Positions 44,939 to 64,000 of a stretch of DNA of 64,000 nucleotides are shown in pieces. Position 1 is the first letter of the stretch. Every line of letters starts with the position of its first letter. The DNA is from a bacterium (GTDB lineage Bacteria > Zhuqueibacterota > Zhuqueibacteria > Residuimicrobiales > Krinioviventaceae): contig OY843751.1 in assembly GCA_963693055.1 (NCBI GenBank), positions 3,264,001 to 3,328,000 on the forward strand. The letters are read 5' to 3'. A program made the position numbers and the translations under genes. The notes under the pieces are model-generated. The model had not been told where the DNA came from, made no database searches, and saw only the letters and a program-made list of their open reading frames with translations.

Positions 44939-44950
44939 AAAGTTCGGGTC

Positions 44951-45388
44951 CTAACTCATCCATGATAATGGATCATTCTTAACCTTGTCCATCTTGCGGC
45001 GTTCCTTTTTGGTTGGCCGGCCTTTGTATTTGGGTTTCAACTGTTTTGTAGATTTATAGTGAAGACCAATTAGCTCTTTAGCCTCATCAGATAATTCCAG
45101 TTCCTCCTTGACATACATTTCTCGGGCATCTTTTGCAGACACATTTTTATGCGCAAGCCCGGATATTGTATAGTTGATATACTGACCACCTTTTTGCTTG
45201 ATTGTCAATACATCTCCAATATGTATCATCTTTGAGGGCTTGGCAACCTCATTATTGACCTTGACTTTACGGTCATCACAGGCACGGGTAGCCTGGGCCC
45301 GCGTTTTAAACAAGCAGGAAATATTCAGCCATTTATCAAGACGCTGCTGTTCGGCTTTATCAAAAATAATTTTATCTTCAATGCTCAT
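44951..45388 (-). CDS. hslR: S4-domain RNA-binding protein (Hsp15-like)
   Basis: RLDKWL..FKTRAQA and GRPTKKERR. Confidence 0.88.
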   Translation of the reverse strand: MSIEDKIIFDKAEQQRLDKWLNISCLFKTRAQATRACDDRKVKVNNEVAKPSKMIHIGDVLTIKQKGGQYINYTISGLAHKNVSAKDAREMYVKEELELSDEAKELIGLHYKSTKQLKPKYKGRPTKKERRKMDKVKNDPLSWMS

Positions 45389-45390
45389 GT

Positions 45391-46359: not shown

Positions 46360-47105
46360 TTTGGACCCGCTATAAATCGTTGAACAAATTCATTTTGACT
46401 TGATTTAATTTCCGCAATAGTACCTATTTCAATAATTGCGCCATCATTAATAACCGCAACCCGGTCAGCTACACTAAACCCACTATCCAACTCGTGGGTT
46501 ACTACTATGGATGTAACACCCAGTTCTTTTTGAGTTTTTCGAATCAATGCATTAATAGTAGTAGCCGTAATCGGATCCAATCCGGTTGTAGGCTCATCAT
46601 ATAACATAATCTGTGGCTGACTTGCCATAGCACGCGCAAGGGCTGCTCTTTTTTTCATCCCGCCTGATAAACTGGCAGGCATTAATTTTTCTGTACCTTT
46701 AAGATCTACAAATTCCAGATTTCTTTTTACAATTTCTTCTATTTGTGCCGGTTTCATTTTGGTGTGTTCTTTTAAAGAATAGCCAACATTGTCACCCACA
46801 GTTAATGAGTCAAACAATGCCGCACCTTGAAAGAGCATGCCAATTTTTTGACGTATAGGAAACAATGCGTTTTCCTGTAATTCTGTGATCTCGTCGCCAT
46901 CAACATATACCTGCCCGGAATCCGCAGGCAATAAACCGAGTAAAATTTTCAGCATTACACTCTTGCCACATCCGCTACGTCCCAAAATTACCAGAGTTTC
47001 ACCACGATATATGGAAAGATTTAATCCCTGTAATACATGTTTATCACCAAAGGATTTGTAAACATTCTGAAAATCAATTATGTAATCTCGGTTTTCTATC
47101 ATCAA
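46356..47105 (-). CDS. mlaF: MlaF-type ABC transporter ATPase
   Basis: GRSGCGKS, FQGAALFDS, LSGGMKKR and YDEPTTGLDP. Confidence 0.92.
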   Translation of the reverse strand: MMIENRDYIIDFQNVYKSFGDKHVLQGLNLSIYRGETLVILGRSGCGKSVMLKILLGLLPADSGQVYVDGDEITELQENALFPIRQKIGMLFQGAALFDSLTVGDNVGYSLKEHTKMKPAQIEEIVKRNLEFVDLKGTEKLMPASLSGGMKKRAALARAMASQPQIMLYDEPTTGLDPITATTINALIRKTQKELGVTSIVVTHELDSGFSVADRVAVINDGAIIEIGTIAEIKSSQNEFVQRFIAGPK

Positions 47106-47108
47106 ATT

Positions 47109-47882
47109 CTACATCCAGGAAATGGACAAAATCAGCTTTGTTATAAAAAAGTCTAATACAAATATTAAAATTGAAGAAACAACAACAGATTGCGTAGTAG
47201 CTTCACCCACACCCTTGGTACCACCTTGCGCATTAAAGCCCATATAACAGCTAACAATTGCTATGGTAATGCCAAACACAAAAGGTTTGATCATGCCGGT
47301 TATTAAATCACCAAAACCCAAAGCACGGGTTACCGTTTTCCAATAAAATGAGGAACTGATTCCTAACGAACTGGTGGCTATTAAAAGACCACCTAAAATT
47401 CCAACCATATCACCAATTACGGTCAAAACAGGCAGCATTATAGCCAAAGCTTTTAATCGGGTTGATGCAAGTTTTCGGATAGGATTGGTTCCCAGGGCCT
47501 TCATCGCATCCAGCTGTTCGGTTACTTTCATTGATCCTAGCTCTGCAGCAATACCAGCCCCAACACGACCGGCAACCACCAATGAGACCAAGACTGGTCC
47601 CAGTTCACGAACCAGTGAAACACTGACCAATGTACCTACATACATTTTAGCGCCATAAACAGCCATTTCATAGCCGGACTGTAGCGTTAAAACCATCCCT
47701 GTAAACCCGGAAGTCATTAATATAATTAATAATGACCGTACACCTATACTGTGCATTTGATCAAATGTGTCTTTGATATAAAATGGTCGGCTAAAAATAT
47801 TGTAGGTAGCCCTGCCAAATAATTCAGCAAGTCCATGCAGGTGCACAAGAAATTCTATAAAAGTATGATATGCTCGTTTCAA
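47109..47882 (-). CDS. mlaE: MlaE-type ABC permease
   Basis: RELGPVL..AGRVGAGIAAELGSMKVTEQLDAM and GVGEATT. Confidence 0.93.
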   Translation of the reverse strand: MKRAYHTFIEFLVHLHGLAELFGRATYNIFSRPFYIKDTFDQMHSIGVRSLLIILMTSGFTGMVLTLQSGYEMAVYGAKMYVGTLVSVSLVRELGPVLVSLVVAGRVGAGIAAELGSMKVTEQLDAMKALGTNPIRKLASTRLKALAIMLPVLTVIGDMVGILGGLLIATSSLGISSSFYWKTVTRALGFGDLITGMIKPFVFGITIAIVSCYMGFNAQGGTKGVGEATTQSVVVSSILIFVLDFFITKLILSISWM

Positions 47883-48735: not shown

Positions 48736-49809
48736 TCAATACTCTCTCAACTCTTCCTGACCATTTAACACTCGCAAAACACCCTGCGCCATTGCATCCA
48801 TTTCCAACTCGCCGGGAAAAACAAAGACAGGAGCAATAAACATAATACGTCCGGTAACTTCGGTAATTAATCGATTTGAATTTGCAAGTCCACCAGTCAA
48901 GACAATAGCCTTAACATCACCATTAACAACAGTTGCCATTGCGCCTATTTCTTTGGCAATCTGATAGCACATGGCAAAAAAGACATTCTTTGCCAATTCG
49001 TCACCATCCTGAATGCGTTGCTCTATAACCTGCATATCTTTGGTGCCAAGGTATGCCTTTAGACCACCTTTGCTCATGACCATTTCTTTCATGTCATGAT
49101 TGCCGTATTTGCCTGAGAAACACATATCAATAAAGGGCATAAGTGGTAATGCACCGGTGCGTTCAGGTGAAAAAGGTCCCGCGCTTGAAGCATCGTTCAC
49201 ATCAATCACCCTGCCATTTCGCACAGGAGCAATTGAGATACCTCCACCCAAATGTGCAACAATAAAGTTATTTTTACTGGCATCAATATCCAGCTTTTCA
49301 GCAGCCCAGTATGTAGCTGCACGCAAGTTTAAAGAATGTGACAATGAACGTCTTTCCATTAACGGATGTCCGGAATACCTGGCAACAGGTTCAAACTCAT
49401 CAACGGATACAGGATCAACAGTATACGCAGGACAACTAAATTTTGTTGCAATTTTATCTGCAAGAGCACATCCTAAATTGGATACATGTGCACCCCGGTG
49501 CCCTTCGCGGGCGTCTTTTATCATCTGCTGATCAACTTTATAGGTGCCCCGTTTGAGTGGTTTGAGAATTCCACCACGCCCAACTACAGCATCAAGGGGA
49601 TCCGTTAATTCCTGATCTGCAAGAAAATCTTCAATTGCATTAGTACGATATTCAAACTGGCTCCAAAGAGAATTAAACCTGCCAAGTTCTCGCTCATCAT
49701 GTTTAATGTTCTCTGAAGCTATCACTTTTTTACCTGCATACAATGCAACTTTGGTTGAAGTAGAGCCAGGATTTATTACAAGAATTAAAGCTTTATCATT
49801 TTGGGTCAA
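48736..49809 (-). CDS. buk: Second butyrate kinase
   Basis: INPGSTSTK, GRGGIL, HVSNLG, AHLGGGIS and GPFSPER; TTG start with SD AGGAG. Confidence 0.93.
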   Translation of the reverse strand: MTQNDKALILVINPGSTSTKVALYAGKKVIASENIKHDERELGRFNSLWSQFEYRTNAIEDFLADQELTDPLDAVVGRGGILKPLKRGTYKVDQQMIKDAREGHRGAHVSNLGCALADKIATKFSCPAYTVDPVSVDEFEPVARYSGHPLMERRSLSHSLNLRAATYWAAEKLDIDASKNNFIVAHLGGGISIAPVRNGRVIDVNDASSAGPFSPERTGALPLMPFIDMCFSGKYGNHDMKEMVMSKGGLKAYLGTKDMQVIEQRIQDGDELAKNVFFAMCYQIAKEIGAMATVVNGDVKAIVLTGGLANSNRLITEVTGRIMFIAPVFVFPGELEMDAMAQGVLRVLNGQEELREY

Positions 49810-49926: not shown

Positions 49927-51666
49927 TTATGCTGCGTTTTCTTTATAGATGCTTTTTTTATCATAATGTGTATGAAGCAGTTCATGTGCTTTGTGACCAT
50001 TAGGTTCACCCAGCCATTCTTCATACAATTTCATAACAGCAGGATTCTCATGAGATTTACGGATCTCCATTTTACGGTCTTGCAGATAAATAGCTTCAGC
50101 GCGTTTCTTGCGGATTTCTTCAGAAGTGGGGATCGGTTGACCACCACCACCAATACAACCACCGGGACAAGCCATAATTTCAATAAAATGATATTCAGCT
50201 TCACCGGCTGCAATTTTGTCTAACAATTTACGTGCATTTGCTAAACCGTTAGAAACAGCAGCTTTAACTTTTAAACCGTTCAGGTCTATTTCTGCTTCTT
50301 TAATACCTTCTAAACCTCGAACATCTTTGATCTCTACATCATCAAGTGTCTTTTCGGTAACAATTTCATAAACGGTACGTAATGCAGCTTCCATTACACC
50401 ACCGGTATTACCAAAAATAACAGCAGCACCTGTAGAGATACCCAATGGATCATCGTACTCTTCTTCATGCAGATCAGGTAAATTGATACCAACCTGTTTC
50501 ATCATTACAGCTGCTTCACGTGTGGTCAATACAGCGTCCACATCCTGAAAACCGCTGTCATTCATTTCCGGACGTCCACATTCATATTTCTTGGCAGTAC
50601 AAGGCATGATGGATACACAATAAATATCTTTAGGATCAATGCCATTCTTTTCAGCATAATATGTTTTTGCCAAAGCGCCAAACATCTGCTGTGGAGATTT
50701 ACATGAAGATACATGCGGCAACAAATCAGGATAAAAATGTTCAATAAAATTTATCCAGCCGGGGCTACATGAAGTTAACAATGGCAAAGTGCCGCCATTC
50801 TTTACACGACCCAACAGCTCTGTACCTTCTTCCATAATGGTTAAATCTGCGGTAAAGTCTGTATCAAAAACTTTATCGAATCCCAACATTCTCAAACCAG
50901 TAACAAACTGATTGGTAACCAGAGAACCGGCAGGCATACCAAACATTTCGCCAATTGACGCGCGAACTGCGGGTGCAGTTTGAACAACAACATGTTTTGT
51001 AGGATCATCCAAAGCTGCCCAAACGCGTGCTGTATGATCATTTTCATACAATGCACCAACAGGACAACGATCGATACATTGACCACAGGAAACACAGGCA
51101 ACATCGCCAATGCCTTTACCAAATGGAGTATCAACCCAAACTTCGTATCCACGGCCTTCAAGACCAATTGCGCTAACACTCTGTACCAGTTCACAAGTCT
51201 GGATACAACGGCGGCACAAGATACATTTGGAAGGATCACGAACGATAGCCGCACTGGAAAGGTCCAGTTCACCCTTACGTTCATGATATTCAAAACGATT
51301 TTCACGCAAACCCAATTGTTCTGCGGCATCCTGCAATTCACAGAAATTATTGCGAACACATTCAGTACATTTCATGGGATGACGAGACAATAACAATTCG
51401 AGTGCCATTTTGCGAGAGTCGCGAACTGATTGGGTGCGTGTTGAAACATTCATCCCCTCCTTACATTGCCATGAGCAAGCAGTGCGTAACAAACGATCAC
51501 CTTCAACCTCTACAACACATAAACGACATGCAGATACCGGCGGTAAATCTGGATGATAGCATAAACGGGGGATTTTGATATTTAATTTTTCTGCTGCTTC
51601 TAGAACAGTCGTACCCTTGGGTACTGTTACTGTTTTACCATCTATTGTTAATGTGATATTTTCCAC
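49927..51666 (-). CDS. hydA: [FeFe]-hydrogenase catalytic subunit (group A, HndD/HydA-like), copy 1
   Basis: 2Fe-2S, HxxxCxxC and 2x[4Fe-4S] F-clusters; H-cluster motifs TSCSPGW, MPCTAKKYE and EIMACPGGCIGGGGQP; SHENP small-subunit tail. Confidence 0.96.
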   Translation of the reverse strand: MENITLTIDGKTVTVPKGTTVLEAAEKLNIKIPRLCYHPDLPPVSACRLCVVEVEGDRLLRTACSWQCKEGMNVSTRTQSVRDSRKMALELLLSRHPMKCTECVRNNFCELQDAAEQLGLRENRFEYHERKGELDLSSAAIVRDPSKCILCRRCIQTCELVQSVSAIGLEGRGYEVWVDTPFGKGIGDVACVSCGQCIDRCPVGALYENDHTARVWAALDDPTKHVVVQTAPAVRASIGEMFGMPAGSLVTNQFVTGLRMLGFDKVFDTDFTADLTIMEEGTELLGRVKNGGTLPLLTSCSPGWINFIEHFYPDLLPHVSSCKSPQQMFGALAKTYYAEKNGIDPKDIYCVSIMPCTAKKYECGRPEMNDSGFQDVDAVLTTREAAVMMKQVGINLPDLHEEEYDDPLGISTGAAVIFGNTGGVMEAALRTVYEIVTEKTLDDVEIKDVRGLEGIKEAEIDLNGLKVKAAVSNGLANARKLLDKIAAGEAEYHFIEIMACPGGCIGGGGQPIPTSEEIRKKRAEAIYLQDRKMEIRKSHENPAVMKLYEEWLGEPNGHKAHELLHTHYDKKSIYKENAA

Positions 51667-51718
51667 ATTTAACCTCCATTGTGCGTATTATAACGTTAAA
51701 CTCAACATACATTATTTG

Positions 51719-53308
51719 TTAAGCCACAGCTTCCGGTTGTTTTACCAATTTTTCGAATTCAGGGCGGAAATGTTTCAGCGTTCCCAGAATAGGTACAGGA
51801 GCAGCCTGACCTAATCCACAGAACGCACCCTTCATCATGACTACTGCAAGTTCTTCAATCATATCGATGTCTTTGATCTCGCCTTTACCACTGCTCAATT
51901 TTTCAAGACGCTCCAATAAACGGCCTGTTCCTTCACGGCAAAGTGTACATTTACCACAAGATTCATGATTAAAGAATTCTACAAAATTGGTTACCAGATC
52001 AACAATTTCCTGATCTTCATCAACAACCAGTAAAGCACCTGAACCCAAACCTGAGCCAATTTCGCGCAAGTTTTCAACTGCCAATGGCAGGTCCAGATGT
52101 TCGGAGGTTAAAATACCACCAGTAGTTCCACCCATTTGGGCGAGTTTAAAGCCTTTACCATTGGGAATGCCCTGACCGATATCATAAATAATTTCTCGCA
52201 GGGTAATGCCCATGGGAACTTCAATAAGGCCGGGATTATTAATATTGCCAACCATGGTAAATACCTTAGTGCCCGGGCTTTTTTCGGTGCCCAGTGACTT
52301 GTACCACTCGGCGCCTTTTAAAACAATCTGAGGAATATTAGCAAGTGTTTCCACGTTATTTACGATTGTCGGTTTTCCCCACAGACCTTCGGAAGGTGGA
52401 AACGGTGGTTTATCACGTGGTTCTCCGCGTTTTCCTTCAATGGATTCTATCAATGCGGTCTCCTCACCACAGATATAAGCGCCGGCCCCTTCACGAATTT
52501 CAAGATCAAATGAAAAATCTGTACCAAACAGATTATCACCCAGTAATCCGTTTTCTTTAGCCTGATCGATAGCGCGCTGCATCCGATCGATGGACATGCG
52601 GTATTCACCACGAATATAAACATAACCTTTGGTTGCACCCACTGCAAAACCTGCAAGTGCCATTCCCTCAATAACTGCATGTGGATCGCCTTCAAGGATC
52701 AGACGGTCTTTAAATGTACCCGGCTCACCTTCGTCAGCATTACATACAATGTATTTTTGCTCAGCGGTTTCTTTGGCAGCAAAATCCCATTTCAAGCCAG
52801 TTGGGAAAAATGCACCACCACGTCCCTGCAGGCCGGATTCTTTAACGGTACTGCGTACAGCATCGGGGTCCATTTCGGTTAATGCTTTACCAAATGCTTC
52901 ATATCCGTCATGAGCAATGTATTCATCAATGTTATCAGGATCAATAACACCGGCATTTTTCAATACTACCCGTATTTGTTTTCCAAAACGAGGTGCAGGT
53001 ACACCTGCGGTCTCTGTTTCAGGAATATCAGTATATTGTAAACGATCAACTTTACGACCTTTGATCAGGTGTTCAGAGATGATTTCAGAAACATCTTCAA
53101 CCTTGACACCGGCATAATATACCGCGTCAGGGAAAACAACCATAACAACACCTTTATTATAAATTCCCAAACTACCAGTTTCAACAACACGGACTTCATC
53201 GGCAAGCGCTGCCATTTTCAGTTCGCGCTCCAATGCGTCTTTGACAGAACGGGCGCCCTGGGCAATTGTATGTCCATCCATTGCAATAAGTATGTGAATC
53301 CTATGCAT
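51719..53308 (-). CDS. hydB: NuoF-like diaphorase subunit (HndC/HydB), non-bifurcating type
   Basis: GRGGAFFP, ADEGEPGTFKD, GAGAYICGEET, MGGTTGG and ESCGKCTLCREG; lacks the C-terminal 2x[4Fe-4S] domain; N-terminal Trx-like domain has no Cys. Confidence 0.92.
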   Translation of the reverse strand: MHRIHILIAMDGHTIAQGARSVKDALERELKMAALADEVRVVETGSLGIYNKGVVMVVFPDAVYYAGVKVEDVSEIISEHLIKGRKVDRLQYTDIPETETAGVPAPRFGKQIRVVLKNAGVIDPDNIDEYIAHDGYEAFGKALTEMDPDAVRSTVKESGLQGRGGAFFPTGLKWDFAAKETAEQKYIVCNADEGEPGTFKDRLILEGDPHAVIEGMALAGFAVGATKGYVYIRGEYRMSIDRMQRAIDQAKENGLLGDNLFGTDFSFDLEIREGAGAYICGEETALIESIEGKRGEPRDKPPFPPSEGLWGKPTIVNNVETLANIPQIVLKGAEWYKSLGTEKSPGTKVFTMVGNINNPGLIEVPMGITLREIIYDIGQGIPNGKGFKLAQMGGTTGGILTSEHLDLPLAVENLREIGSGLGSGALLVVDEDQEIVDLVTNFVEFFNHESCGKCTLCREGTGRLLERLEKLSSGKGEIKDIDMIEELAVVMMKGAFCGLGQAAPVPILGTLKHFRPEFEKLVKQPEAVA

Positions 53309-53777
53309 TTGCCTGTCCTTTCATTTTATAGTCTTTTAATATTGCCACTGCTTTTTCCGGAGTAAGATTACCATAAACCTCATCATTGATCATCATAACC
53401 GGTGCAACCGCACAAAGTCCCAAACAGCTTGTAAATTCCAGAGTAAAAAGATTATCGGGAGTGGTTTCATTCATATCAAGACCCAGATATTCTTTAATTT
53501 TTTCCAGAACATCTTTGGAACCTTTAACATGGCAGGGTGCATTGTTGCAGCAACGTACAATATATTTACCTTTATCTTCTGTATTGAACAGACTATAAAA
53601 AGTAGCTACACCATAAATATCTGAAAGTGGTAATTTGGTAGCTTTTGCAACTTGAGTAAGTACGGGTTCAGAGAGGGAACCATACTCTTTTTGAACATCT
53701 TTTAAAATATAAATAAGTGGTGTTTTTGTGTCAGCATAATTTTTGACAATAACATCCACCTTGGTTAAATCTTGCAT
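53301..53777 (-). CDS. hydC: NuoE-like [2Fe-2S] subunit (HndA/HydC)
   Basis: GVATFYSLF, CCNNAPC and SCLGLCAVAP; SD GGAGG before ATG 53777. Confidence 0.93.
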   Translation of the reverse strand: MQDLTKVDVIVKNYADTKTPLIYILKDVQKEYGSLSEPVLTQVAKATKLPLSDIYGVATFYSLFNTEDKGKYIVRCCNNAPCHVKGSKDVLEKIKEYLGLDMNETTPDNLFTLEFTSCLGLCAVAPVMMINDEVYGNLTPEKAVAILKDYKMKGQANA

Positions 53778-53820
53778 TCTCAACCTCCATAGATTGATTT
53801 TCCAGCGTTGCGGGTATCGT

Positions 53821-54183
53821 CTAGTTTAAATTAAATACATATTCCGAAACTACAGTATTGTTCACAATATGTTCTGCAATAATTTTACGAGCTATTTCAG
53901 CATTTACTTTACCATATGTAACGGTAGGTTTGTCTGCCTGAGCAATCTGCAGCATGGGTTCATTATCACAGTAACCCAAACAACCTGTTTGTGTAACAAC
54001 AGCGTCTTTGATACCACGCTTTTCAATTTCATCTAAAATCGCTGACATTGTGTCACGTGAACCTGCGGCGATTCCGCATGTTCCCATGGAAACAATAATG
54101 CGATATTTTGCATCGCTTTCCCGTGCAGCCATCTGAGATTTTGCCTTCTCCTTGATAGCACGGAGATCTGCTAATGTTTTCAC
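53821..54183 (-). CDS. Thioredoxin-like [2Fe-2S] ferredoxin (HndB/HydD-like)
   Basis: SMGTCGIAAG and TGCLGYCDNEP; GTG start with SD AGGAGG. Confidence 0.9.
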   Translation of the reverse strand: MKTLADLRAIKEKAKSQMAARESDAKYRIIVSMGTCGIAAGSRDTMSAILDEIEKRGIKDAVVTQTGCLGYCDNEPMLQIAQADKPTVTYGKVNAEIARKIIAEHIVNNTVVSEYVFNLN

Positions 54184-54421: not shown

Positions 54422-54985
54422 TTAATCTAATAAAACTTTACTTTTCACTTGAATACGTTTCAATTCAGATTTGATATGTTTTTTTGCCGGAACAACCATA
54501 TCAAAAAAATCACAATCCTGTTCTGCCATTCTTGCCAAAAGCCAGTATGAATCAAAACATAAAAGTCCCTTGTCCGTACGATGAAGGTAGCAAAAATGCA
54601 CATCAACCGCACCCATTACCAGGTTTACAACTGTACCGGCAATATCTCCCAAAGGTGCCAGGTTTAAGCTATTGAGTTTGAAATCAGCGGTAACAGTTGT
54701 GCCTTTACCCAATTTCGATTTCAAAACCATGCGCCCACCGGCTTCATTTGCTGCCTGGTTCCAGAATGGTAATCCCATTCCTACTGAACGTGTGGTTCTT
54801 GAGGTAACAAAGGGATCAATAACTCTGGCCTGAGTAACGTCATCCATACCTCTGCCATTATCACGTATTGTAACCGCGAGCCTGTTTTGTTTTTGAGATT
54901 CATCAATAAACAAAATCACGCGTGAAGCCTCTGCTTCAATGGAATTTGTAACAATATCCAAAATATTTAATGATAATTCACGCAT
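54422..54985 (-). CDS. Stand-alone HATPase_c (GHKL kinase-like) protein, hydrogenase-associated
   Basis: MRELSLNILDIVTNSIEA, DNGRGM, DPFVTSRTTRSVGMGL and PLGDI; no HisKA. Confidence 0.88.
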   Translation of the reverse strand: MRELSLNILDIVTNSIEAEASRVILFIDESQKQNRLAVTIRDNGRGMDDVTQARVIDPFVTSRTTRSVGMGLPFWNQAANEAGGRMVLKSKLGKGTTVTADFKLNSLNLAPLGDIAGTVVNLVMGAVDVHFCYLHRTDKGLLCFDSYWLLARMAEQDCDFFDMVVPAKKHIKSELKRIQVKSKVLLD

Positions 54986-55747
54986 CTAGCTCATCTCCTC
55001 CGGGAGTTCAAGAGAGGTTTTACGTCCATCTTGCTTTTTGAGTGCTTTACGGATCTCTTCAAAATCCGGTTTTTCGATATAAAACCAGGTATATTTTGAA
55101 CCCAACATACTTATATCGTGGGCATCAGAAGCTGTAATGATACTTTTGGTAGTATTGAGTAAAAAACGATGATTTTTTGAAACATTCTCAAATGGTTGTG
55201 CAATTTCAAGCGCATCGAAAGGCAAGTTGTCGGGAATGAATCCCAAAGAGCGTAACAAACTGTATGATTTCCTATCAATATGCGCAGGATAAATGATACC
55301 ATTCAAATCTACAACCGTACTGGCAACTTTGTAAATATTCAGGCTTACCGGCAGAGCAAACATACGTTTACTTTCCTCAATAATATTTTCCTGAAAATCG
55401 CAAACATATTGTGGACCAAACATGGATGCATCATATTCACCAGGCATCAAATGTTCATATATATAGTTTTGGAAATGCCCGGCAGCATCCAGGTCTGGAA
55501 ATAAACATATAGAGTGCGCATCTTCACGTGTATAGACTTCCATACCAGGAATGACAAAGAGTTTTTTATTTTCAGCGGCCTTAACAACAGCCTGTGTATT
55601 TTCTGCAGAGTTGTGATCCGTAATTGCCAGGATATCCAGTTCATGTTGCAGGGCTGTTTTAACAATATCAACTGGCCCCATTGTCAATTCAGCACAAGGC
55701 GAAAGGACCGTATGAACATGCAAATCCGCTTTGTACCATTGCAGCAT
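54986..55747 (-). CDS. PHP-domain phosphoesterase
   Basis: DLHVHTVLSPC, AITDHN, PAHIDR and SDAH. Confidence 0.92.
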   Translation of the reverse strand: MLQWYKADLHVHTVLSPCAELTMGPVDIVKTALQHELDILAITDHNSAENTQAVVKAAENKKLFVIPGMEVYTREDAHSICLFPDLDAAGHFQNYIYEHLMPGEYDASMFGPQYVCDFQENIIEESKRMFALPVSLNIYKVASTVVDLNGIIYPAHIDRKSYSLLRSLGFIPDNLPFDALEIAQPFENVSKNHRFLLNTTKSIITASDAHDISMLGSKYTWFYIEKPDFEEIRKALKKQDGRKTSLELPEEMS

Positions 55748-55751
55748 TCAC

Positions 55752-56093
55752 CTATCTCCCCCGTAAACCAAAATCGTAAAGTTGGCCTGCGACATCAAAG
55801 GCAGACAGGGTTGTGCTGAAAACAGGTATATTTTTTTCATTGGCTTTTTCAAGGGCTGAATCGTCAGGAACCAATCCTTCGGGAAAGATAACTCCGGCAA
55901 GAGACTTGAAAAATACAATGGCAATAACGTTTTCATGTGTTTGATTGGTGATCCACAATGACCCTTTTAATGCATTGGCCATTGCATCACTAAGGATATC
56001 AGACAAGTAACCAAAATCTACTTCTTTGTTCAGATTTTGTTCACCGCTGAGAACTTTTAAATCTAACTTTTTTACAATCTCTTGCAACACCAT
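55752..56093 (-). CDS. DRTGG-domain protein (HPr kinase N-terminal-like)
   Basis: EIVKKLDL, GYLSDILSDAM and LWITNQTHENVIA. Confidence 0.85.
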   Translation of the reverse strand: MVLQEIVKKLDLKVLSGEQNLNKEVDFGYLSDILSDAMANALKGSLWITNQTHENVIAIVFFKSLAGVIFPEGLVPDDSALEKANEKNIPVFSTTLSAFDVAGQLYDFGLRGR

Positions 56094-56135: not shown

Positions 56136-57614
56136 TTATTCCATTTTTGAAGCCGGCAGGAACACTGAAAAAGTTGTTCCTTTTTCATACTCGCTTTCAA
56201 TTTCGATCTTGCCGGCATATGCATCTACAATTTTTTTAACAATTGTTAGACCCAATCCGGTACCGGTTATTTCTCGGGTGTGTTCATTCTTGGCCCTGAA
56301 AAAATCTTCAAACAAGCGTTCTTTATCTTCAGGACGCATCCCTATTCCGGTATCGGTAACATCAATTCGAATATAATGACCGTTACGACTGCCGTTTATG
56401 GTTATGGAACCGTTATCACGATTGTATTGAATTGCATTGGATATGACTTGAGTAAATAAACGTTGAAGATCTATCTGGTCAGCATCTACAAACAAATGTT
56501 CAGTAACGCTAATACGAACTTCTAGATTGTGTTCCTTGATGTCATTTTTCATGAAATTGAGTCGTTCTGACAATAGCTCTGAAATATCCTGTCTGTTTAT
56601 TTCGCGTCTTACCTTGCCAGCTTCCAGACGGGTGACATTTAGCAAATCATTGATCAGATTGACAAGTGACTTTGTACGATCTAATGATCTCTTTAAATAA
56701 TTCTCATACAAGTCCGGATCATCGCCCAGAGTCTTGTCTACAACCAGCTCAAGATAGCCTTGTACAGCAGACAATGGTGATTTTAATTCATGTGCAGCCA
56801 TATCTACAAATTGAGAGCGCATGATATCAATTTTTTTCAATTCTGAAATATCACGCAAGACAGACACAACGCCCAACAATTCACCCTTGTCTATGATAGG
56901 TGTTGTATTGGCCATTATCACCAGTTTTGCCGGCGGATGTATAATGATCTCTTGCTGTATCGCTTTAACCTGTTCTTTTTTGCTAAAAATCTCTCGCAGC
57001 TGTTTGTTCAACTCGTCTGGCAGAAACTGCCAAACTTTGTCACCAATTTCAATCTTGCTTTCAACGTTTAATAATTTTATAAACCCGGGATTAAAAAGTA
57101 CAACCTGCCCTTCCTGGTTAATAACCATAATACCATCATCCAAAGAATTGATAATGGTGCGCATGCGCGATTGCTCATGAGCAACCTGCAGCAATCTTCT
57201 TTCCTGCTCTTCACGTAATCTTCTGGCTTCTAAAATATACCAGCGACGTTCAAGAGCACGGTTTACCAGGATTTGCAGTTCATCTGGTTCAAAAGGTTTG
57301 GGTATATACTGGTAGGCACCCAGTCGTGTGGTTTCCACAGCAGTTTCAATAGATGCATATGCAGTAACAATCACACAAATGGCTTCGGGATATACCAGCT
57401 TGATCTCACGTAATACCTGCGTGCCCTCCACATCCGGCATACGTAAATCAATAAAGTACAGATCATACTCGTTGGCAATACCCTTTTCAATACCTTCTGT
57501 ACCGTTTGAGGCCGTATCTACATTATGACCGTACAACTCGAGGATGCGTCTAATGCCTTCACGCATCCCCAATTCATCATCTACGACCAGTATTTTACCT
57601 TGTTCAATCCTCAA
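56136..57614 (-). CDS. Hybrid REC-PAS-histidine kinase
   Basis: ILVVDDE..IDLRMP..YIPKPF; PAS (SLDDGIMVINQEG); AAHELKSPL; DTGIGM and GTGLGL. Confidence 0.93.
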   Translation of the reverse strand: MRIEQGKILVVDDELGMREGIRRILELYGHNVDTASNGTEGIEKGIANEYDLYFIDLRMPDVEGTQVLREIKLVYPEAICVIVTAYASIETAVETTRLGAYQYIPKPFEPDELQILVNRALERRWYILEARRLREEQERRLLQVAHEQSRMRTIINSLDDGIMVINQEGQVVLFNPGFIKLLNVESKIEIGDKVWQFLPDELNKQLREIFSKKEQVKAIQQEIIIHPPAKLVIMANTTPIIDKGELLGVVSVLRDISELKKIDIMRSQFVDMAAHELKSPLSAVQGYLELVVDKTLGDDPDLYENYLKRSLDRTKSLVNLINDLLNVTRLEAGKVRREINRQDISELLSERLNFMKNDIKEHNLEVRISVTEHLFVDADQIDLQRLFTQVISNAIQYNRDNGSITINGSRNGHYIRIDVTDTGIGMRPEDKERLFEDFFRAKNEHTREITGTGLGLTIVKKIVDAYAGKIEIESEYEKGTTFSVFLPASKME

Positions 57615-58008
57615 GTTCTTTAAATATCTTTTCGCTTAAATATTGTACCAAATCTCTGGGAGAAATGGGTTTTTCCAAATAATCATCTGCCTTGATCCAG
57701 TTTTTTTCTTCATCTGTATCGGTAGAAAAACGGATACCGGTATCGTGACCGGCTGAAGTCATGATGATTACACGAACGTTTTCAGTATTGGGCTGTTGTT
57801 TGATTCTGTGGCAAAGTACAAAACCAGAATCAAAATGCTCCATTGCAAGGTCAACAACAACAACAGGCGGATTAAATGCTTTGAATTTTTCCAAACCTTC
57901 CACACTGTCATATGCAGTTTCTACAGTATAGCCTTCTTTTTCTAAAACGGGTTTATAAATATTGATCAAATCTGTATCGTCATCAACCATTAAAATCTTT
58001 TTATCCAT
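57604..58008 (-). CDS. Single-domain response regulator
   Basis: ILMVDDD, VVDLAME and YLEKP; no output domain. Confidence 0.92.
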   Translation of the reverse strand: MDKKILMVDDDTDLINIYKPVLEKEGYTVETAYDSVEGLEKFKAFNPPVVVVDLAMEHFDSGFVLCHRIKQQPNTENVRVIIMTSAGHDTGIRFSTDTDEEKNWIKADDYLEKPISPRDLVQYLSEKIFKELED

Positions 58009-58022
58009 GCGAACATTTTCCT

Positions 58023-58415
58023 TTAATTCTTGGTTTTCAACATTTCAATTACTTTATCATACAACTGTGTATGTGTAACGGGTTTTTCCATAAAGTCATC
58101 TACCGGGTTCCAATTATCATCCGGGCCAATGGTGAGATTAAAATTGTGTTCCTGATTGACACTGGTCATCATCAGGATCAATGTATCGTTAATAGCATCA
58201 TCTTTACGAATCTCACGGGCAACTTCAAAGCCTTCACCCACTTCGGTCATCATGACATCGAGTATTACCAAATCCGGTTTTTCGGATCTAACCAGTTTCA
58301 GTCCATCTGAACCGTTATAGGCCTTGCATACATGAAAACCCTTTGATGTAAAAAAGGCACGGTTCATTTCGACTAGATCAACATCATCATCAATTATTAA
58401 TAATTTATAACTCAT
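58023..58415 (-). CDS. Single-domain response regulator
   Basis: LLIIDDD, ILDVMM and FMEKP; no output domain. Confidence 0.92.
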   Translation of the reverse strand: MSYKLLIIDDDVDLVEMNRAFFTSKGFHVCKAYNGSDGLKLVRSEKPDLVILDVMMTEVGEGFEVAREIRKDDAINDTLILMMTSVNQEHNFNLTIGPDDNWNPVDDFMEKPVTHTQLYDKVIEMLKTKN

Positions 58416-58429
58416 CTTTCCTCTAGAGT

Positions 58430-60442
58430 TTATTGACCTGTTACCGCTTGAACAGTTTCAAGTGCCATTGGTAAATCAATTAAAAAATTGGTTCCATAAC
58501 CGGGTGTGCTCTGCACTTTAATATTACCCTTGTGCATTTTCAAAATTCCATAAGCTATAGGAAGACCTAAACCGGTTCCTTTGCCAATTTGCTTGGTCGT
58601 AAAAAAGGGTGTAAACAGTTTTGCAACATTTTCCTGAGCTATTCCAACTCCAGTGTCTTTAAATTCAAGGCATACACGACTTGCTTCATAATCTGTATTT
58701 GCCGAGATTGTTAACACACCACCATCGGGCATAGCTTCTGCGGCGTTTATTGCAAGATTTAAAAAGACCTGGTAAATCTGATCTCCATCAATATCAACCA
58801 GTGGCAGATTCGGATCAAAATTCACTTTAATCTCTATATTTTGAAATAATTGTTGTTTCTCTATTACAGAAATCATCTTGCCAATTAATTCGGAAAGGTT
58901 ATGCTTTTTCAGCTTTAACTTTCCTTGTCTGGAAAAGTTTAACAATCCGGAAACAATTTTTTGACAGCGTTTTGTCTCTTCCATAATAAACCGCATGTCT
59001 TTGGCCTGAGGATCAGTATCTTCCATTTTTTGCAAAACCAGATGCGCGTAAAGTAAAATGGATCCCAAGGGATTGTTTACTTCGTGAGCCACACCTGCTG
59101 CAAGCTGACCAATGGATGCCAACTTTTCATGCTGGATGAGTTGTTCCTGCGTTTCAGCGAGTTGTTCCAATGAATTTTTCAACTCTTGCTGCATACGCTG
59201 CTGTTTTTCAATAATAAACGGCAAACACATGGCATCTTCTGCAATCCCTTGATAAACAGCAATGGCGTATTCTCTACAACTATCATAACCACAGGATCTG
59301 CAATTGAGCTCGTCAGACGGATCAAATTTTTCAATCTTTTCCAGAATTGAGCGAATCTCTTTGTCCGAGGGTAATGGCATTTTGCATGGTCGTGCTTTAA
59401 ACGTTCTAAACACATCCACATCACGACATTGCTCAAGAGTACTTTTCCATGACATATAATTGGTAGATTGCCGGTGTGATGCTGTATACTGAACAATTTT
59501 TTGTTTTCGTGTAAAATAATTGACCGACTTGTTCATAAAGGGTCCATTTATACACCCTTCACAAAACAACACATCAACCAGACTGGCTTTGATTTCTTGG
59601 TTTTTAAGACAATCAAACAGTTTGAGAATTTGTTGCTTACCTTCGGTCAAAATGACTTCCTTGTTCATAATATCAAGCGGTAAACCAGCGCTGCGCAAAA
59701 AACCTCCGGAAATGGGATACAAACTGCCCAAATACGGATGCGGCGGATCGAAATCCTTCCAAGTACAATTCTCAGGATCAACACCCAGTTTTCTCCAAAG
59801 TTCTTCCAGTTCCTGAAAGGTCAAAACTTCGTCTACTGCATCTTTAACTTCGGCATCTCGTATTTCTGTTTTTTTCGCAGTACAGGGGCCAATAAATACC
59901 GTTTTTACATTGGCACCATATATTTTTTTTACAACCCTGCCCATAGCAATCATGGGTGATACTACCGGGGCAAGGTCGTTAATTAATTCGGGTACATACA
60001 TTTGAATATATGAAAAAATTGCAGGACAAGAGCTTGTTATAAAGGGCCTTTCTTTCTGGTTATTTTTTTCATTAACCAGGTTTAAATAAGCGCGATTTAT
60101 AAGATCAGCGCCAAAGGCCACTTCAACAACATGAGAAAAACCACAAGCGCGTAACGCACCTACCAGCTTGCCGGTTTCCATTTTAGGGTATGCCGCAGGA
60201 AACGATGGCGCCAGCATGGCTACTGTATTCTCTTGCTTGAGTAATTCCAAAGCATTGTCAACTCCATCCAGAACTGCTTTTGCCTTTTGTGTACAAACAG
60301 TAACACAATGACCACAGCTAAGACAGCGTTCTACAATGACTTTGGCTTGCCCGTTTTCAACCTTGATTGCTTTTGCCGGGCATTCCCGAATACAGGAATA
60401 ACAGCGCTTGCATTTTTCTTCTATTGTCCAAACAACTGGCAT
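58430..60442 (-). CDS. hydS: Sensory [FeFe]-hydrogenase (group C, HydS) fused to histidine kinase
   Basis: 2x[4Fe-4S] N-terminus; altered H-cluster motifs TSSCP, GPCTAKKTE and DVLFCEGCING; FeS domain CRSCGYDSC..C; HisKA AHEVNNPL; FTTKQIGKGTGLGL. Confidence 0.9.
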   Translation of the reverse strand: MPVVWTIEEKCKRCYSCIRECPAKAIKVENGQAKVIVERCLSCGHCVTVCTQKAKAVLDGVDNALELLKQENTVAMLAPSFPAAYPKMETGKLVGALRACGFSHVVEVAFGADLINRAYLNLVNEKNNQKERPFITSSCPAIFSYIQMYVPELINDLAPVVSPMIAMGRVVKKIYGANVKTVFIGPCTAKKTEIRDAEVKDAVDEVLTFQELEELWRKLGVDPENCTWKDFDPPHPYLGSLYPISGGFLRSAGLPLDIMNKEVILTEGKQQILKLFDCLKNQEIKASLVDVLFCEGCINGPFMNKSVNYFTRKQKIVQYTASHRQSTNYMSWKSTLEQCRDVDVFRTFKARPCKMPLPSDKEIRSILEKIEKFDPSDELNCRSCGYDSCREYAIAVYQGIAEDAMCLPFIIEKQQRMQQELKNSLEQLAETQEQLIQHEKLASIGQLAAGVAHEVNNPLGSILLYAHLVLQKMEDTDPQAKDMRFIMEETKRCQKIVSGLLNFSRQGKLKLKKHNLSELIGKMISVIEKQQLFQNIEIKVNFDPNLPLVDIDGDQIYQVFLNLAINAAEAMPDGGVLTISANTDYEASRVCLEFKDTGVGIAQENVAKLFTPFFTTKQIGKGTGLGLPIAYGILKMHKGNIKVQSTPGYGTNFLIDLPMALETVQAVTGQ

Positions 60443-60443
60443 A

Positions 60444-62156
60444 TTATTCTACATCTCTTCTCACATAGTGTGTATGCAAGAGCTCATGGGCCTTATGACT
60501 GTTGGGCTCGCCAAGGAACTCTTTATACAATTTCTGAACTGATTCATTCTGATGTGAACAACGCATGGGCAGTTCTTTATCGATCTTGTAAATAGCCTGC
60601 ATACGCTTTTCAGTTTTTTCAGGATCAGAAGGCAATGGCTGACCACCACCATTAATACAACCACCGGGGCATGCCATAACTTCAATAAAGTGATATGGAG
60701 AAGTTCCTTCCTGCATCTGGTCCAGGAAATGGTTTATGTTTTTCAATCCGTTAATAGCGGCAACTTTAAGTTCAATATCATTAATCGTTACAACAGCTTC
60801 TTTAACACCACTCAAGCCACGGATTGGACGAAAATCGATATCATCCATTTCTTTACCCGTAAGTGTAAAATATGCTGTACGCAAAGCGGCTTCCATAACA
60901 CCACCGGCACTACCAAAAATAACCGCAGCACCCGTTGATTCACCCAATGGATCATCAAAGTGTTCTTCTGCCAGGCGGGTAAAATCAATACCTGCGTTTT
61001 TGATCATTCTTGCAAGTTCGCGTGTGGTAACTACTGCATCAACATCCGGGTATTTATCACCCAGTTCAGGACGTTGAGCTTCAAATTTCTTTGCAGTACA
61101 TGGCATTACAGATACTACAAATATATCTTTGGGATCAATACCCATCTTTTGCGCATAAAAAGATTTTACAAGCGCTCCCTGCATTTCATGTGGTGATTTA
61201 CAGGTTGAGAGATTGCCCAACAGATCGGGATAAAAATGTTCAATATATTTAATCCAACCCGGACTACAAGAAGTAATCATGGGAACAGTACCATTATTGG
61301 TTAAACGACCCAACAATTCAGTTGCTTCTTCCATAATGGTAAGATCAGCACTAAAGTTGGTGTCAAAAACAGTGTCAAAGCCCATTGCGCGAAGTGCTGA
61401 AACCATTTGACCTGTAACAATAGTGCCAACCGGCATCCCAAATTCTTCACCCAGTGCAACACGTACAGCCGGTGCAACTTGAACAACAACATGTTTTTCT
61501 TTATTATTAATGGCATCCCAAACAACTTTTTCCTGGCTCTTTTCTTTCAAAGCACCAACTGGACAGTTAACAATACACTGACCACAGTAAACACAAGGAA
61601 CTGTGTTCAAACTGTTATCAAATGCAGGGGTAACATAAGTCTGGAAACCACGGTTTGCAAAATCAATTGCGCCTACATTTTGTACTTCATGACAAACACG
61701 GATACAGCGACCGCAGAGAATACATTTATCGGGATCACGTTCCATTGATGGACTTGCAACATCCTGTTTGTTTGAACGTTTTTCACCTTCATAGCGCAGG
61801 CTGCGAACACCATATTCCGCAGCAAGGGTCTGTAATTCACAATTTCCATTGCGAACACATTGCAAACAATCAGCCGGGTGGTTGGCAATCAACAACTCGA
61901 TGATGGTTTTTCTTGCACGTCTTACCTTGGGTGAATTGGTTTGCACCTTCATTCCGTCAGCTACCGGAAATGCACAGGAAGGTACAAGATTGCGCTGTCC
62001 TTCTACTTCAACAACACATATACGGCATGAACCGGTTGGGCTAAATCCTTTCAGGTAACACAATGTTGGTATTTTAATACCTTCACGGTCAGCTACGGTA
62101 AGGATCGTTTCACCCGGATTGGCCCAGCACTCTTTATCATTTATTATAATTCGCAT
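60444..62156 (-). CDS. hydA: [FeFe]-hydrogenase catalytic subunit (group A3), copy 2
   Basis: F-clusters plus TSCSPGW, MPCTAKKFE and EVMACPGGCINGGGQP. Confidence 0.96.
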   Translation of the reverse strand: MRIIINDKECWANPGETILTVADREGIKIPTLCYLKGFSPTGSCRICVVEVEGQRNLVPSCAFPVADGMKVQTNSPKVRRARKTIIELLIANHPADCLQCVRNGNCELQTLAAEYGVRSLRYEGEKRSNKQDVASPSMERDPDKCILCGRCIRVCHEVQNVGAIDFANRGFQTYVTPAFDNSLNTVPCVYCGQCIVNCPVGALKEKSQEKVVWDAINNKEKHVVVQVAPAVRVALGEEFGMPVGTIVTGQMVSALRAMGFDTVFDTNFSADLTIMEEATELLGRLTNNGTVPMITSCSPGWIKYIEHFYPDLLGNLSTCKSPHEMQGALVKSFYAQKMGIDPKDIFVVSVMPCTAKKFEAQRPELGDKYPDVDAVVTTRELARMIKNAGIDFTRLAEEHFDDPLGESTGAAVIFGSAGGVMEAALRTAYFTLTGKEMDDIDFRPIRGLSGVKEAVVTINDIELKVAAINGLKNINHFLDQMQEGTSPYHFIEVMACPGGCINGGGQPLPSDPEKTEKRMQAIYKIDKELPMRCSHQNESVQKLYKEFLGEPNSHKAHELLHTHYVRRDVE

Positions 62157-62171: not shown

Positions 62172-64000
62172 TTATTCCACATAAATGGCATCAAATTTAC
62201 AATTGGCTCTACACTGATCACAGCGTATACATTTATCATCAATAATGTAATGTGCTTTTTTACGTTCGCCCAGAATAGCATTTTCAGGACATTTTCTAGC
62301 ACAAACTGTACAACCGGTACATTTATCTGTATCAATCTTATATGTCAACAGGTCTCTACAAACACCAGCGCGGCATTTACGATCGTACAAGTGTTCTTCG
62401 TATTCTTCACGGAAATAACGTATTGTGCTCAATACGGGGTTCGCGGCAGTTTGTCCCAATCCACACAACGAAGTATTAATGATCACTTCTGACAGACGTT
62501 CAAGGTATACCATACCCTGGAAACGCAGCAGTGAATCTTCGGCAGATTTTTCAGCACGATGGCTTGATGACAAACGTTCCAGAATTTCCAACAACCGCTT
62601 TGTACCCTCACGACAAGGAATACATTTACCACATGATTCAGACTGGATAAAGGTCATAAAGTATTTGGCCAAATCAACCATACAGGTTGTTTCATCCATT
62701 ACCACCAGACCACCGGAACCCATCATGGCGCCAATGCTTTTGAGTGATTCATAATCTACAGGAGTATCGATAACTGAATCCGGTAATGCACCACCAGAAG
62801 GACCACCAATCTGTACAGCCTTGAATTCTTTACCATCAGGAATACCACCACCAATATCAAAAACGATTTCACGCAGTGTAACACCCATGGGAACTTCAAC
62901 CAGACCTACATTTTTCACTTTACCGGAAAGAGCAAAGATCTTGGTACCTTTAGAATTTTCTGTACCAATCTTTGAATACCAGTCTGCACCATTACGCAAG
63001 AGTACCGGTACATTTGCAAAAGTTTCAACGTTATTAATAATGGTTGGTTTACCAAACAATCCTGCATCTGAAGGATATGGTGGTTTAGGACGCGGCATTC
63101 CGCGTTTACCTTCAATTGAATTCAACAATGCGGTTTCTTCACCACAAACAAATGCGCCCGCACCTTTTTTAATTTTCAGGTTAAAGCTAAATCCTGTTCC
63201 CAGAATATTCTCACCCAACAGGCCATAGGCTTTAGCGTCTTTGATCGTTTTTTCAAGTCTAGCAATTGCAAGTGGATATTCAGCACGGCAGTAAACATAA
63301 CCTTCATCTGCACCAATAGCAAAAGCGGCAATAGCCATACCTTCTACCATCAAATGAGGATCACCTTCCATTACCGCACGATCCATAAATGCACCAGGAT
63401 CGCCTTCATCTGCATTACAAACAACATATTTTTTATCGCCTTTTGACTGGGCAGCCAGTTTCCACTTTAAACCTGTTGGAAAACCACCGCCGCCACGACC
63501 ACGAAGTCCGCCGTCTAAAACTTCTTTAACCACTTTTTCGGAATCCATTTGGGTCAAAGCTTTGGTCAAAGCCTGGTAACCACCATTTGAAATATATTGA
63601 TCAATACTTTCCGGATCAATTACACCACAATTGGCTAAAACTACTTTTTTCTGTTTCTTAAAGAATGGAATATCTTCCATTTTATCAACACTTGACCAAT
63701 CACCTGCATGACCATTTTTATCATATACACCCAGTGTTTTTCCTACAATCACTTGTTTATTAATAATGGTCTGTTCCACAATTTCAGGAACATCCTCAAC
63801 TGTAACTTCACAATAACTGATTCTCGGATAATTGGGTAATTTAATATCAACAATAACTTCACGTGCGCAATATCCAACACAACCAGTAGAGATCAGCTTT
63901 GCATTAATATTTTTTTCATTCAATAATGTTTTAAAAGCATCATATATTTTTTGTGCACCATTTGCTAAACCACAGGTACCCATACCCAGCAGGATAACAG
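62172..64000 (-). CDS. hydB: NuoF-like HydB subunit, electron-bifurcating type (5' end beyond window)
   Basis: GRGGGGFP, ADEGDPGAFMD, GAGAFVCGEET, GGPSGG and C-terminal 2x[4Fe-4S] (CTGCTVCARKCP, CIRCDQCRANC); frame is open past the track's Met (..VILLGMGTCG). Confidence 0.93.
   Translation of the reverse strand, partial: VILLGMGTCGLANGAQKIYDAFKTLLNEKNINAKLISTGCVGYCAREVIVDIKLPNYPRISYCEVTVEDVPEIVEQTIINKQVIVGKTLGVYDKNGHAGDWSSVDKMEDIPFFKKQKKVVLANCGVIDPESIDQYISNGGYQALTKALTQMDSEKVVKEVLDGGLRGRGGGGFPTGLKWKLAAQSKGDKKYVVCNADEGDPGAFMDRAVMEGDPHLMVEGMAIAAFAIGADEGYVYCRAEYPLAIARLEKTIKDAKAYGLLGENILGTGFSFNLKIKKGAGAFVCGEETALLNSIEGKRGMPRPKPPYPSDAGLFGKPTIINNVETFANVPVLLRNGADWYSKIGTENSKGTKIFALSGKVKNVGLVEVPMGVTLREIVFDIGGGIPDGKEFKAVQIGGPSGGALPDSVIDTPVDYESLKSIGAMMGSGGLVVMDETTCMVDLAKYFMTFIQSESCGKCIPCREGTKRLLEILERLSSSHRAEKSAEDSLLRFQGMVYLERLSEVIINTSLCGLGQTAANPVLSTIRYFREEYEEHLYDRKCRAGVCRDLLTYKIDTDKCTGCTVCARKCPENAILGERKKAHYIIDDKCIRCDQCRANCKFDAIYVE

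Follow-up and report, generated by a model that had tools for sequence, protein, structure and literature searches.

The stretch of DNA analysed here (the window) comprises 64,000 nucleotides of contig OY843751.1 (positions 3,264,001 to 3,328,000; assembly GCA_963693055.1) from a bacterium of the Zhuqueibacterota, and the subject is a set of four minus-strand genes at 56136..60442 that specify a hydrogenase-like sensor kinase and its neighbouring signalling proteins. All four open reading frames (ORFs) that the initial annotation had placed there are present. The first, HK1 (HydS-kinase 1, 670 aa; 58430..60442), encodes 2x[4Fe-4S], a sensory H-domain, a Cx2Cx4Cx16C FeS domain, a helical linker, an NtrB-type HisKA domain (H453) and a HATPase domain. 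Its start lies 1 bp past the stop of hydA1 (60444..62156, minus strand), as had been noted. The hydA1 gene specifies a catalytic subunit of group A3 type whose H-cluster motifs are intact and which has the motif TSCSPGW; the TSCSP was considered as a sign of decay and rejected, as A. woodii HydA1 carries the same motif. Following HK1 are two single-domain receivers with an unusual insert (insert-receivers), REC1 (130 aa, 58023..58415; subtype B with a 'PVD' motif, D53) and REC2 (134 aa, 57604..58008; subtype A, D53), and then a hybrid REC-PAS-HisKA-HATPase (492 aa, 56136..57614) with an NtrC-class receiver (D56) and a PhoR/WalK-class kinase (H275).

The source genome (G000) is 100% complete on one contig (C1), to which coordinates outside the window refer; other G numbers denote kin genomes, and L and P numbers extracted loci and proteins. 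Read along this contig, the same-strand cluster runs on beyond window base 64000. The hydB1 gene (62172..64000), cut by the window end, starts at C1:3328217 and is preceded by hydC1 (C1:3328195-3328647), a second (upstream) REC-PAS-kinase hybrid (C1:3328674-3330143), REC0, a third insert-receiver (C1:3330140-3330556), and a pseudo-receiver (C1:3330573-3330944; L001:4573-4944), all on the minus strand. At the head of the cluster is a minus-strand gene for a sigma-54 activator of REC-AAA+-HTH type (439 aa, C1:3331130-3332449). The 185-bp gap below it contains an enhancer palindrome (C1:3331112-3331130, minus strand), a weaker second site, a sigma-54 -24/-12 element (TGGCAC-N5-TTGA, C1:3330980-3330994, minus strand) and a box, seen by eye, that we take to be IHF-like. 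Activator, enhancer and promoter are about 7 kb upstream of the four-gene set, on the same strand. The earlier claim that the system has no DNA-binding output is an artefact of the window edge and is not supported for this locus, because the cluster continues past the window end to this activator. Downstream of the hybrid, also on the minus strand, are DRTGG, PHP phosphoesterase and stand-alone HATPase genes (54422..56093; gaps of 42, 4 and 0 bp) and a second hydrogenase set, hydD-C2-B2-A2 (49927..54183). Every intergenic gap from the pseudo-receiver through the HATPase gene is 42 bp or less.

The gene order hydC-B-A, HK1, REC1, REC2, hybrid is kept in 20 of 20 loci of kin that probably belong to KSB1 (strong REC2 matches on usable contigs, representing 20 of the 28 relatives with E <1e-48), and an activator orthologue heads the cluster in 15 of them; two of the remaining five stop at a contig edge. 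The pseudo-receiver is the first gene past the promoter in nearly all kin, and P0209 and P0222 each join a domain like it to a subtype-B insert-receiver; a role as modulator of the activator or as partner of the insert-receivers is possible. Outside the lineage the best 80 of 643 GTDB loci were surveyed, and 56 of the 80 carry a full-length HydS-kinase. A REC-kinase-type gene follows this kinase in 51 cases and an insert-receiver in 42, with hydA directly upstream in 38 of the 56 loci. The combination of HydS-kinase, insert-receiver and REC-kinase is found in many phyla.

A domain search of HK1 gave matches to 2x[4Fe-4S], Fe_hyd_lg_C (PF02906, E 1e-52), FeS (PF04060), HisKA and HATPase and none to PAS, which sets it apart from the M2f (TmHydS) type; the kinase portion is nearest to AtoS/ZraS. 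Its motifs are TSSCP (136-140), GPC (185-187), DVLFCEGC (290-297), an exact Cx2Cx4Cx16C (381-406) and H453. Aligned to the adjoining catalytic HydA, Ser138 stands at the proton-transfer Cys (C299), Gly185 at M353 and Leu292 at M497, CpI positions whose loss marks the sensory type (PMC8163306). All three are replaced in HK1 while the four H-cluster Cys and the N-terminal 2x[4Fe-4S] are retained, the pattern of the putative sensory proteins of groups C and D. The sensor-type substitutions (TSSCP with Ser, GPC, DVLFC) recorded in the initial annotation were verified by this alignment, and the joining of the H-domain to an NtrB-type HisKA through an FeS domain and helical linker, with no PAS, agrees with both the domain search and the motifs. 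Across 53 homologues the H-cluster Cys (C139, C187, C294, C297) and A78-P79, S162-P163, G185-P186 and K190 are invariant, and the proton-relay position is variable (S28, P16, T5, A4). C381, C384, C389 and C406 of the Cx2Cx4Cx16C motif are also invariant. An AlphaFold model (mean pLDDT 84) has two helices, 407-429 and 436-471, in the stretch that runs from the FeS domain to the DHp, and resolves 428-450 poorly. Fold searches returned only catalytic hydrogenases, generic kinases and generic receivers.

HK1 shares with TmHydS (group C, M2f) and TamHydS (group D, M2e) the N-terminal 2x[4Fe-4S], the Cx2Cx4Cx16C motif, the loss of C299 and a position beside a group A hydrogenase; the change of M353 to Gly is as in TmHydS, and that of M497 to Leu as in TamHydS (as described in PMC8163306). 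Unlike both, it lacks a PAS domain, carries its kinase in the same chain and has its P3 ligands spaced Cx2C instead of Cx3C. The P3 ligands read C-x-G-C in all 106 kinase-fused H-domains of the set compared (89 identified by pattern and 17 by reading; an extra Cys just precedes them in some), and HydA and 14 of 15 pattern-matched other HydS proteins have Cx3C. In an H-domain tree the kinase-fused proteins form a clade separate from PAS-length HydS (support 0.95). HK1 is a putative sensor that would bind a complete H-cluster and turn over H2 slowly. There are seven H-domain genes in G000, four of them sensory in type (HydS-MCP, HydS-PAS and two HydS-kinases).

The HydS-kinase fusion is common and already catalogued; the wiring and cis elements are what is added here. 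HydDB lists [FeFe] group C1 as 'histidine kinase-linked (putative)', a putative H2 sensor of undetermined role, and also lists C3 (PMC5037454, Table 1). 'BfuT' of the sub-type V BfuABC clusters (Hydrogenedentota, Caldithrix abyssi) is an H-domain-kinase fusion with C3 as its best HydDB hit and a function that is predicted only (PMC11406978). HK1 resembles it as a group C H-domain plus histidine kinase directly downstream of a group A3 bfuA/hydA, and loci in the BfuT order from Calditrichaeota (L073) and Hydrogenedentales (L074) show 41-43% identity. The C1 label for HK1 is not assured, because the kinase-fused BfuT has a C3 best hit. Receivers and missing maturases appear undescribed for BfuT, since the main text of PMC11406978 does not contain the terms 'response regulator', 'maturase' or 'KSB1', although its supplements may show receiver genes.

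The hybrid, annotated initially as REC-PAS-HisKA and found to be REC-PAS-HisKA-HATPase, carries H, N, G1 and G2 boxes, making it a complete kinase with a full ATP-binding domain. No HPt gene was found in the cluster (four HPt matches lie elsewhere in G000), and no HPt or dead phosphotransferase lies between the receivers. This is at odds with the proposed multi-step phosphorelay in the His-Asp-His-Asp sense, and a cascade in the manner of LvrB fits better, because the cluster has no HPt and the ATP-binding domain of the hybrid is complete. LvrB of Leptospira is a Rec-controlled histidine kinase in which receiver phosphorylation switches autokinase activity (PMC13269768). The hybrid, likewise, has an N-terminal receiver with an intact phospho-site on a full DHp-CA kinase, and PAS-less hybrids are similar in layout and length (~370-395 aa). 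Unlike LvrB, it has a PAS between receiver and DHp, is of PhoR/WalK class and has receiver-only partners rather than an anti-sigma factor. The PAS had been taken for a second input. Among 51 hybrids outside the lineage, 21 have a PAS, 29 do not and one is split (judged by His position and ORF length), and a second input by this route is therefore not supported. Conservation within 64 PAS-bearing hybrids is lowest in the PAS (0.50 versus 0.60-0.61 for the other domains), which has no conserved Cys or His and retains structural residues only.

REC1 and REC2 were described earlier as two CheY-like receivers with a common insert and an NWxxxDDxxEKP motif. Both features are present in this pair: the Asp-to-Lys spacing is 58 and 60, versus 50 in the hybrid and activator receivers, and both carry the motif, though invariance in a comparison of 51 family members is limited to DDDxD, D53, G62 and K113. 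The phospho-sites are intact (D53, Thr/Ser, KP). By sequence and fold the insert-receivers are nearest to PhoP/YycF receivers and T. maritima RR468, with which they share all catalytic residues, and they differ from these by an insert of about 7 residues ahead of beta5 (compared with PhoP), one additional residue after D53 and a conserved GF motif. The alpha4 helix is split into two short helices in the REC2 model (pLDDT 94). PDB matches have 23-31% identity, and no close relative stood out among those listed. All three insert-receivers of G000 sit in this cluster (155-165 bits versus 92 for the next protein). A tree of 158 sequences resolves a subtype A clade found before REC-kinases (n=55, support 0.97), with REC2 inside, and a subtype B clade, mostly with the PVD motif (n=49, support 0.92), that includes REC1. 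Subtype A is the type directly before the REC-kinase in most phyla.

Gene neighbourhood suggests a hydrogenase as the target of the insert-receivers. One B subclade precedes hydC in 15 of 16 loci (Ignavibacteria, Thermoleophilia, Myxococcota); most loci of this subclade have a further kinase after hydA, and that kinase, rather than a hydrogenase, could be the partner of the B-type receivers. A search of a representative set for insert-receiver fusions found mostly multi-receiver proteins; a separate search for longer proteins gave, among the 120 matches listed, tandem receivers, pseudo-receiver fusions and one HycI fusion. The last (P0218) joins an insert-receiver to a HycI-type hydrogenase maturation protease, tying the family to [NiFe]-hydrogenases. 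Complex prediction for a subtype-B insert-receiver with HydC/HydB of L045 scored 0.03 against a mark of 0.32 with 13-row alignments, and counts neither for nor against such a complex.

A second HydS-kinase of the source genome, the paralogue HK2 (C1:2480741-2482816), precedes a membrane-complex operon without receivers. Most of 20 HK2-type kin loci have, after the kinase, insert-receiver(s), a REC-PAS-kinase and a DRTGG gene, and these cassette genes match REC0 and the upstream hybrid of the present cluster. Each HydS-kinase therefore appears to have its own cassette, that of HK2 heading this cluster.

Candidate pairings were ranked with a profile of the alpha1 docking helix, built from 51 partner receivers outside the lineage and scored on 112 receivers of G000. 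The downstream hybrid receiver ranks first (17.9 versus 3.2 for the next), the upstream hybrid fifth, and the insert-receivers 79, 80 and 91. This ranking favours a cascade of two kinase tiers over an HPt relay, and the downstream hybrid is the predicted first substrate of HK1. PhoR/WalK-class kinases pair with PhoP-like receivers, and the closeness of the insert-receivers to PhoP/YycF fits the PhoR/WalK-class hybrid as their kinase. Kin genomes place the activator orthologue directly after a HydS-kinase (G004, G022), after a HydS-kinase and one receiver gene (G044, G059), or after a membrane kinase (four others). A profile of six activator-adjacent kinases gave HK2 100 and HK1 97 bits versus 47 for the next ORF, and at surface positions, among 36 pattern-caught kinases, HK2 scored 27.8 versus 18.0 for HK1. 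The activator is most likely fed by HK2, or else by HK1.

Upstream regions from the lineage carry a sigma-54 motif in 22 of 25 cases, with 18 at -75..-40 versus 0.02 expected from base shuffles, and each of these 18 positioned sites has TTGA or TTGT as its -12 element. Sites of each -12 variant in G000, where non-coding DNA is 8.5% by ORF call, are intergenic in 28 of 38 (TTGC), 20 of 51 (TTGA), 16 of 55 (TTGT) and 2 of 39 (the control TTGG) cases. Sites of the TTGA/TTGT type are enriched and common between genes of G000, including before dps- and Hsp20-like genes, and also precede genes that we take to be glnB-, fliM- and clpC-like. Of 27 regions, 23 match the palindrome at 12 or more of its 16 positions, versus 0.17 expected, its consensus having been picked from the same regions in which it was counted. 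The palindrome is kept in G003, G008 and G011, where the activator gene sits on another contig, and with a matrix trained without its own site, it remains the best match in G000 (29.2 versus 18.8 bits for the next). Together with an rpoN gene in G000 and the GSFTGA (GAFTGA-type) loop of the activator AAA+ domain, the -24/-12 element and palindrome make up the parts of a sigma-54, activator-dependent operon, and the adjacent activator would bind the palindrome. The sensor kinase, the two insert-receivers and the hybrid, lying in a cluster so equipped, are likely used by the cell to tune its hydrogenases. An internal promoter before hydD was rejected, there being no sigma-54 or Rex-type match in that gap in 19 regions (G000 and 18 relatives).

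No HydG, HydE or HydF over cut-off was found in the complete G000, and tblastn of this genome with HydG and HydE of a relative gave nothing at E 0.01. Of 61 genomes, 8 have both HydG and HydF over cut-off; among the 20 cluster-bearing kin, one does. The catalytic motifs of HydA1 are retained in maturase-less kin, and the HydS-kinase pocket motifs are alike in these and in G004. Sensing of H2 is therefore conditional on cofactor supply from outside or by another route, and the diiron cofactor would need import. A candidate importer, proposed from gene context, is a 790-aa TonB-dependent receptor encoded with a FeoA-like gene and a TM1266 regulator (L141:9878-12842, C1 about 2767.9-2770.8 kb, minus strand). 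In G000 and seven kin the gene after TM1266 is this receptor, and in five kin with maturases it is hydG. The receptor occurs in 32 of 61 genomes; all 20 cluster-bearing kin have it, as does 1 of the 8 genomes with HydG and HydF. An NMT1-type ABC importer, considered as a cofactor route, was not found with the query used, which gave a single weak match, in what we take to be a HisG-like gene. Maturase-less hydrogenases in archaea and some protists are described as an open problem (PMC11216029); the present data add a bacterial lineage, including a 100% complete genome on one contig, to the intact [FeFe]-hydrogenases without HydEFG, with a candidate importer. Ignavibacterium album was considered as a further maturase-less case and rejected, as it carries hydEFG (PMC3362086).

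The reading we favour, with a probability of about 0.55, is that HydS-kinase, two insert-receivers and REC-PAS-kinase form a conserved cassette within a sigma-54-headed cluster, and act as a two-tier cascade reporting H2 by way of a slow H-cluster. H2 would shift the H-cluster to another redox state, a change relayed to the NtrB-type kinase by way of the Cx2Cx4Cx16C cluster and the helical linker. Phosphate would then pass from H453 to D56 of the hybrid receiver, the best supported step. By analogy with LvrB, phosphorylation of D56 may switch the ATP-dependent kinase of the hybrid itself, and this PhoR-class kinase might in turn phosphorylate the PhoP-like insert-receivers, whose remodelled alpha4-beta5 face would bind a protein, most plausibly from the co-encoded hydrogenase complexes. 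The adjacent activator would drive the cluster from the one enhancer, most likely under HK2 (C1:2480741) with possible cross-talk from HK1, and the diiron cofactor would be imported, perhaps through the TonB receptor beside TM1266. The earlier view that a group C sensory H-domain fused to a kinase feeds the receivers encoded beside it is supported, and the receiver-only branch has no DNA-binding domain. The locus would then be a complete soluble circuit, which unites sensor and kinase in a single chain and adds a first substrate chosen by rank, another kinase and a hydrogenase-linked receiver family, and its single-target activator with defined enhancer and promoter is suitable for reporter use. 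The signal output of putative sensory [FeFe]-hydrogenases is an open question (PMC8163306).

Several points weigh against the cascade. HK1 may be apo, because HydE, HydF and HydG are absent. Its P3 spacing is shortened, and the PDB matches included no group C/D sensor structure. In the literature searched, which lies outside subscription journals, no biochemistry of kinase-fused HydS was found; nor was any account of the cascade, promoter and enhancer, insert-receiver family, Cx2C ligand spacing or TonB route. The alpha1 and kinase-profile rankings partly mirror homology, since the alpha1 profile was built from homologues of the hybrid, and HK2 orthologues account for two of the six kinases. 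On the alpha1 profile the activator ranks only 65 of 112, and the G004 activator scores about equally low though it adjoins a HydS-kinase. Partial Mantel correlation over 76 cassettes did not separate the pairings: it gave r 0.14 (8/500) for HydS-kinase DHp against hybrid receiver, when a pair not expected to be in contact gave r 0.17 (1/500); hybrid DHp against insert-receiver gave r 0.09 (59/500), and HydS-kinase DHp against insert-receiver r 0.01 (218/500). No fusion of an insert-receiver to HydA, HydB or HydC was present among the 120 matches listed. The palindrome count shares its regions with the choice of consensus, the kin loci are not mutually independent, and most kin genomes are incomplete.

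The same wiring could serve another signal, the H-domain reporting diiron loading (apo versus holo) or Fe-S redox rather than H2, so that the hydrogenase is built and switched on only with scavenged cofactor. This fits the missing maturases of G000, the 19 of 20 cluster-bearing kin without HydG or HydF, the shared TM1266 context of TonB receptor and hydG, the variable proton-relay position and the altered P3 ligands. We hold it to be rather unlikely: in other phyla, 32 of the 50 HydS-kinase genomes searched (50 of 56) combine the same type of sensor with HydG over cut-off, and cofactor would not be limiting there, no enhancer lies near the TonB receptor locus among the top 40 matches of the matrix, and TmHydS and TamHydS, with similar substitutions, turn over H2 (as described in PMC8163306). 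A wider scheme, unlikely in its entirety, is that KSB1-type bacteria cannot make the cofactor and use kinase-fused HydS to sense imported diiron cofactor together with H2; one HydS-kinase would license sigma-54 transcription of a 17-kb double-hydrogenase operon, and the second, operon-encoded, would drive Rec-kinase and insert-receivers that switch the electron-bifurcating enzyme post-translationally, CheY-style.

The HoxBC-HoxJ-HoxA and HupUV-HupT-HupR circuits consist of a regulatory hydrogenase, a kinase and an NtrC-family activator of hydrogenase genes; [NiFe] group 2b sensing hydrogenases are listed in HydDB (PMC5037454). The present locus has the same three kinds of component, and differs in its [FeFe] sensor fused to the kinase, the extra kinase tier and the receiver-only branch. 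HK1 might accordingly phosphorylate the sigma-54 activator directly and autoregulate the operon, with hybrids and insert-receivers acting mainly as phosphate sinks or timers. An NtrB-class kinase and an NtrC-class activator do share one cluster, HK1 is second of 36 kinases in likeness to activator-adjacent kinases, the alpha1 of family f2 activators often has the R-x-G-x-x-R signature of the hybrids, two Clostridia loci have an NtrC gene directly after the HydS-kinase, and three loci show a HydS-AAA+ fusion pattern. The low alpha1 rank of the activator and the lead of HK2 over HK1 at surface positions nevertheless speak for other pairings, only 4 of 33 full-flank loci of other phyla have an NtrC-type gene no more than 10 kb away, and the insert-receivers keep a distinctive surface not obviously needed by a pure sink; direct control by HK1 is improbable. 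The arrangement first proposed, a relay of several steps that lacks a transcriptional output and in which PAS is a second input, HK1 feeds the single receivers and the hybrid kinase labels its own receiver, draws on the insert-receiver gene directly after HK1 in most loci, the four genes without an output domain, and the 40 loci of other phyla in which no KSB1-type enhancer was found before hydC (0 of 40; a sigma-54-like site in 5 of 40). It is very unlikely given the activator, enhancer and promoter of this cluster, the PAS, which is absent from 29 of 51 hybrids and less conserved than the other domains, and the low ranks of the insert-receivers on the partner profile.

Other hydrogenase-related genes lie elsewhere in the source genome and its kin. 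Downstream of HK2 (L003:8742-19854; C1:2480741-2491853) are a sulfhydrogenase-beta/gamma-like pair and genes for a membrane-bound complex that has a subunit of NuoD/NiFe-like type, and a 525-bp gap in this region contains two palindromes that we take to be Rex-box-like. Some kin (L171, L174, L177, L181, L186 and L188) have a third HydS-kinase, whose DHp hairpin is longer, together with a short receiver, in tandem with HK2 and downstream of a membrane complex. In Bacillota, L082, L100 and L113 have a HydS H-domain and then a sigma-54 AAA+ without a receiver, a one-component pattern in which the fused frame was verified for L082 only. The HydS-MCP gene (L004:8391-10550; C1:814390-816549) fuses the H-domain to an MCP signalling domain, and has a canonical sigma-54 site upstream at C1:814174; a nifH-like gene near C1:315 kb also has a canonical site. 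The separate HydS-PAS gene near C1:4393 kb is grouped with genes for a SpoIIE-type phosphatase, a 489-aa monomeric hydrogenase and a rex-like product (L002:8230-13748; C1:4390229-4395747), which we take to be a Thermotoga-like arrangement. Seven family f2 loci (L037, L039-L044) have a Mur-ligase-like gene (~390-410 aa; Pfam middle and C-terminal domains) between hybrid and DRTGG. Within the window, a butyrate-kinase-like gene follows hydA2 (48736-49809), and the genes at 42867-47882 are presumably those of an Mla-type ABC transporter and a glutamate dehydrogenase-like protein.

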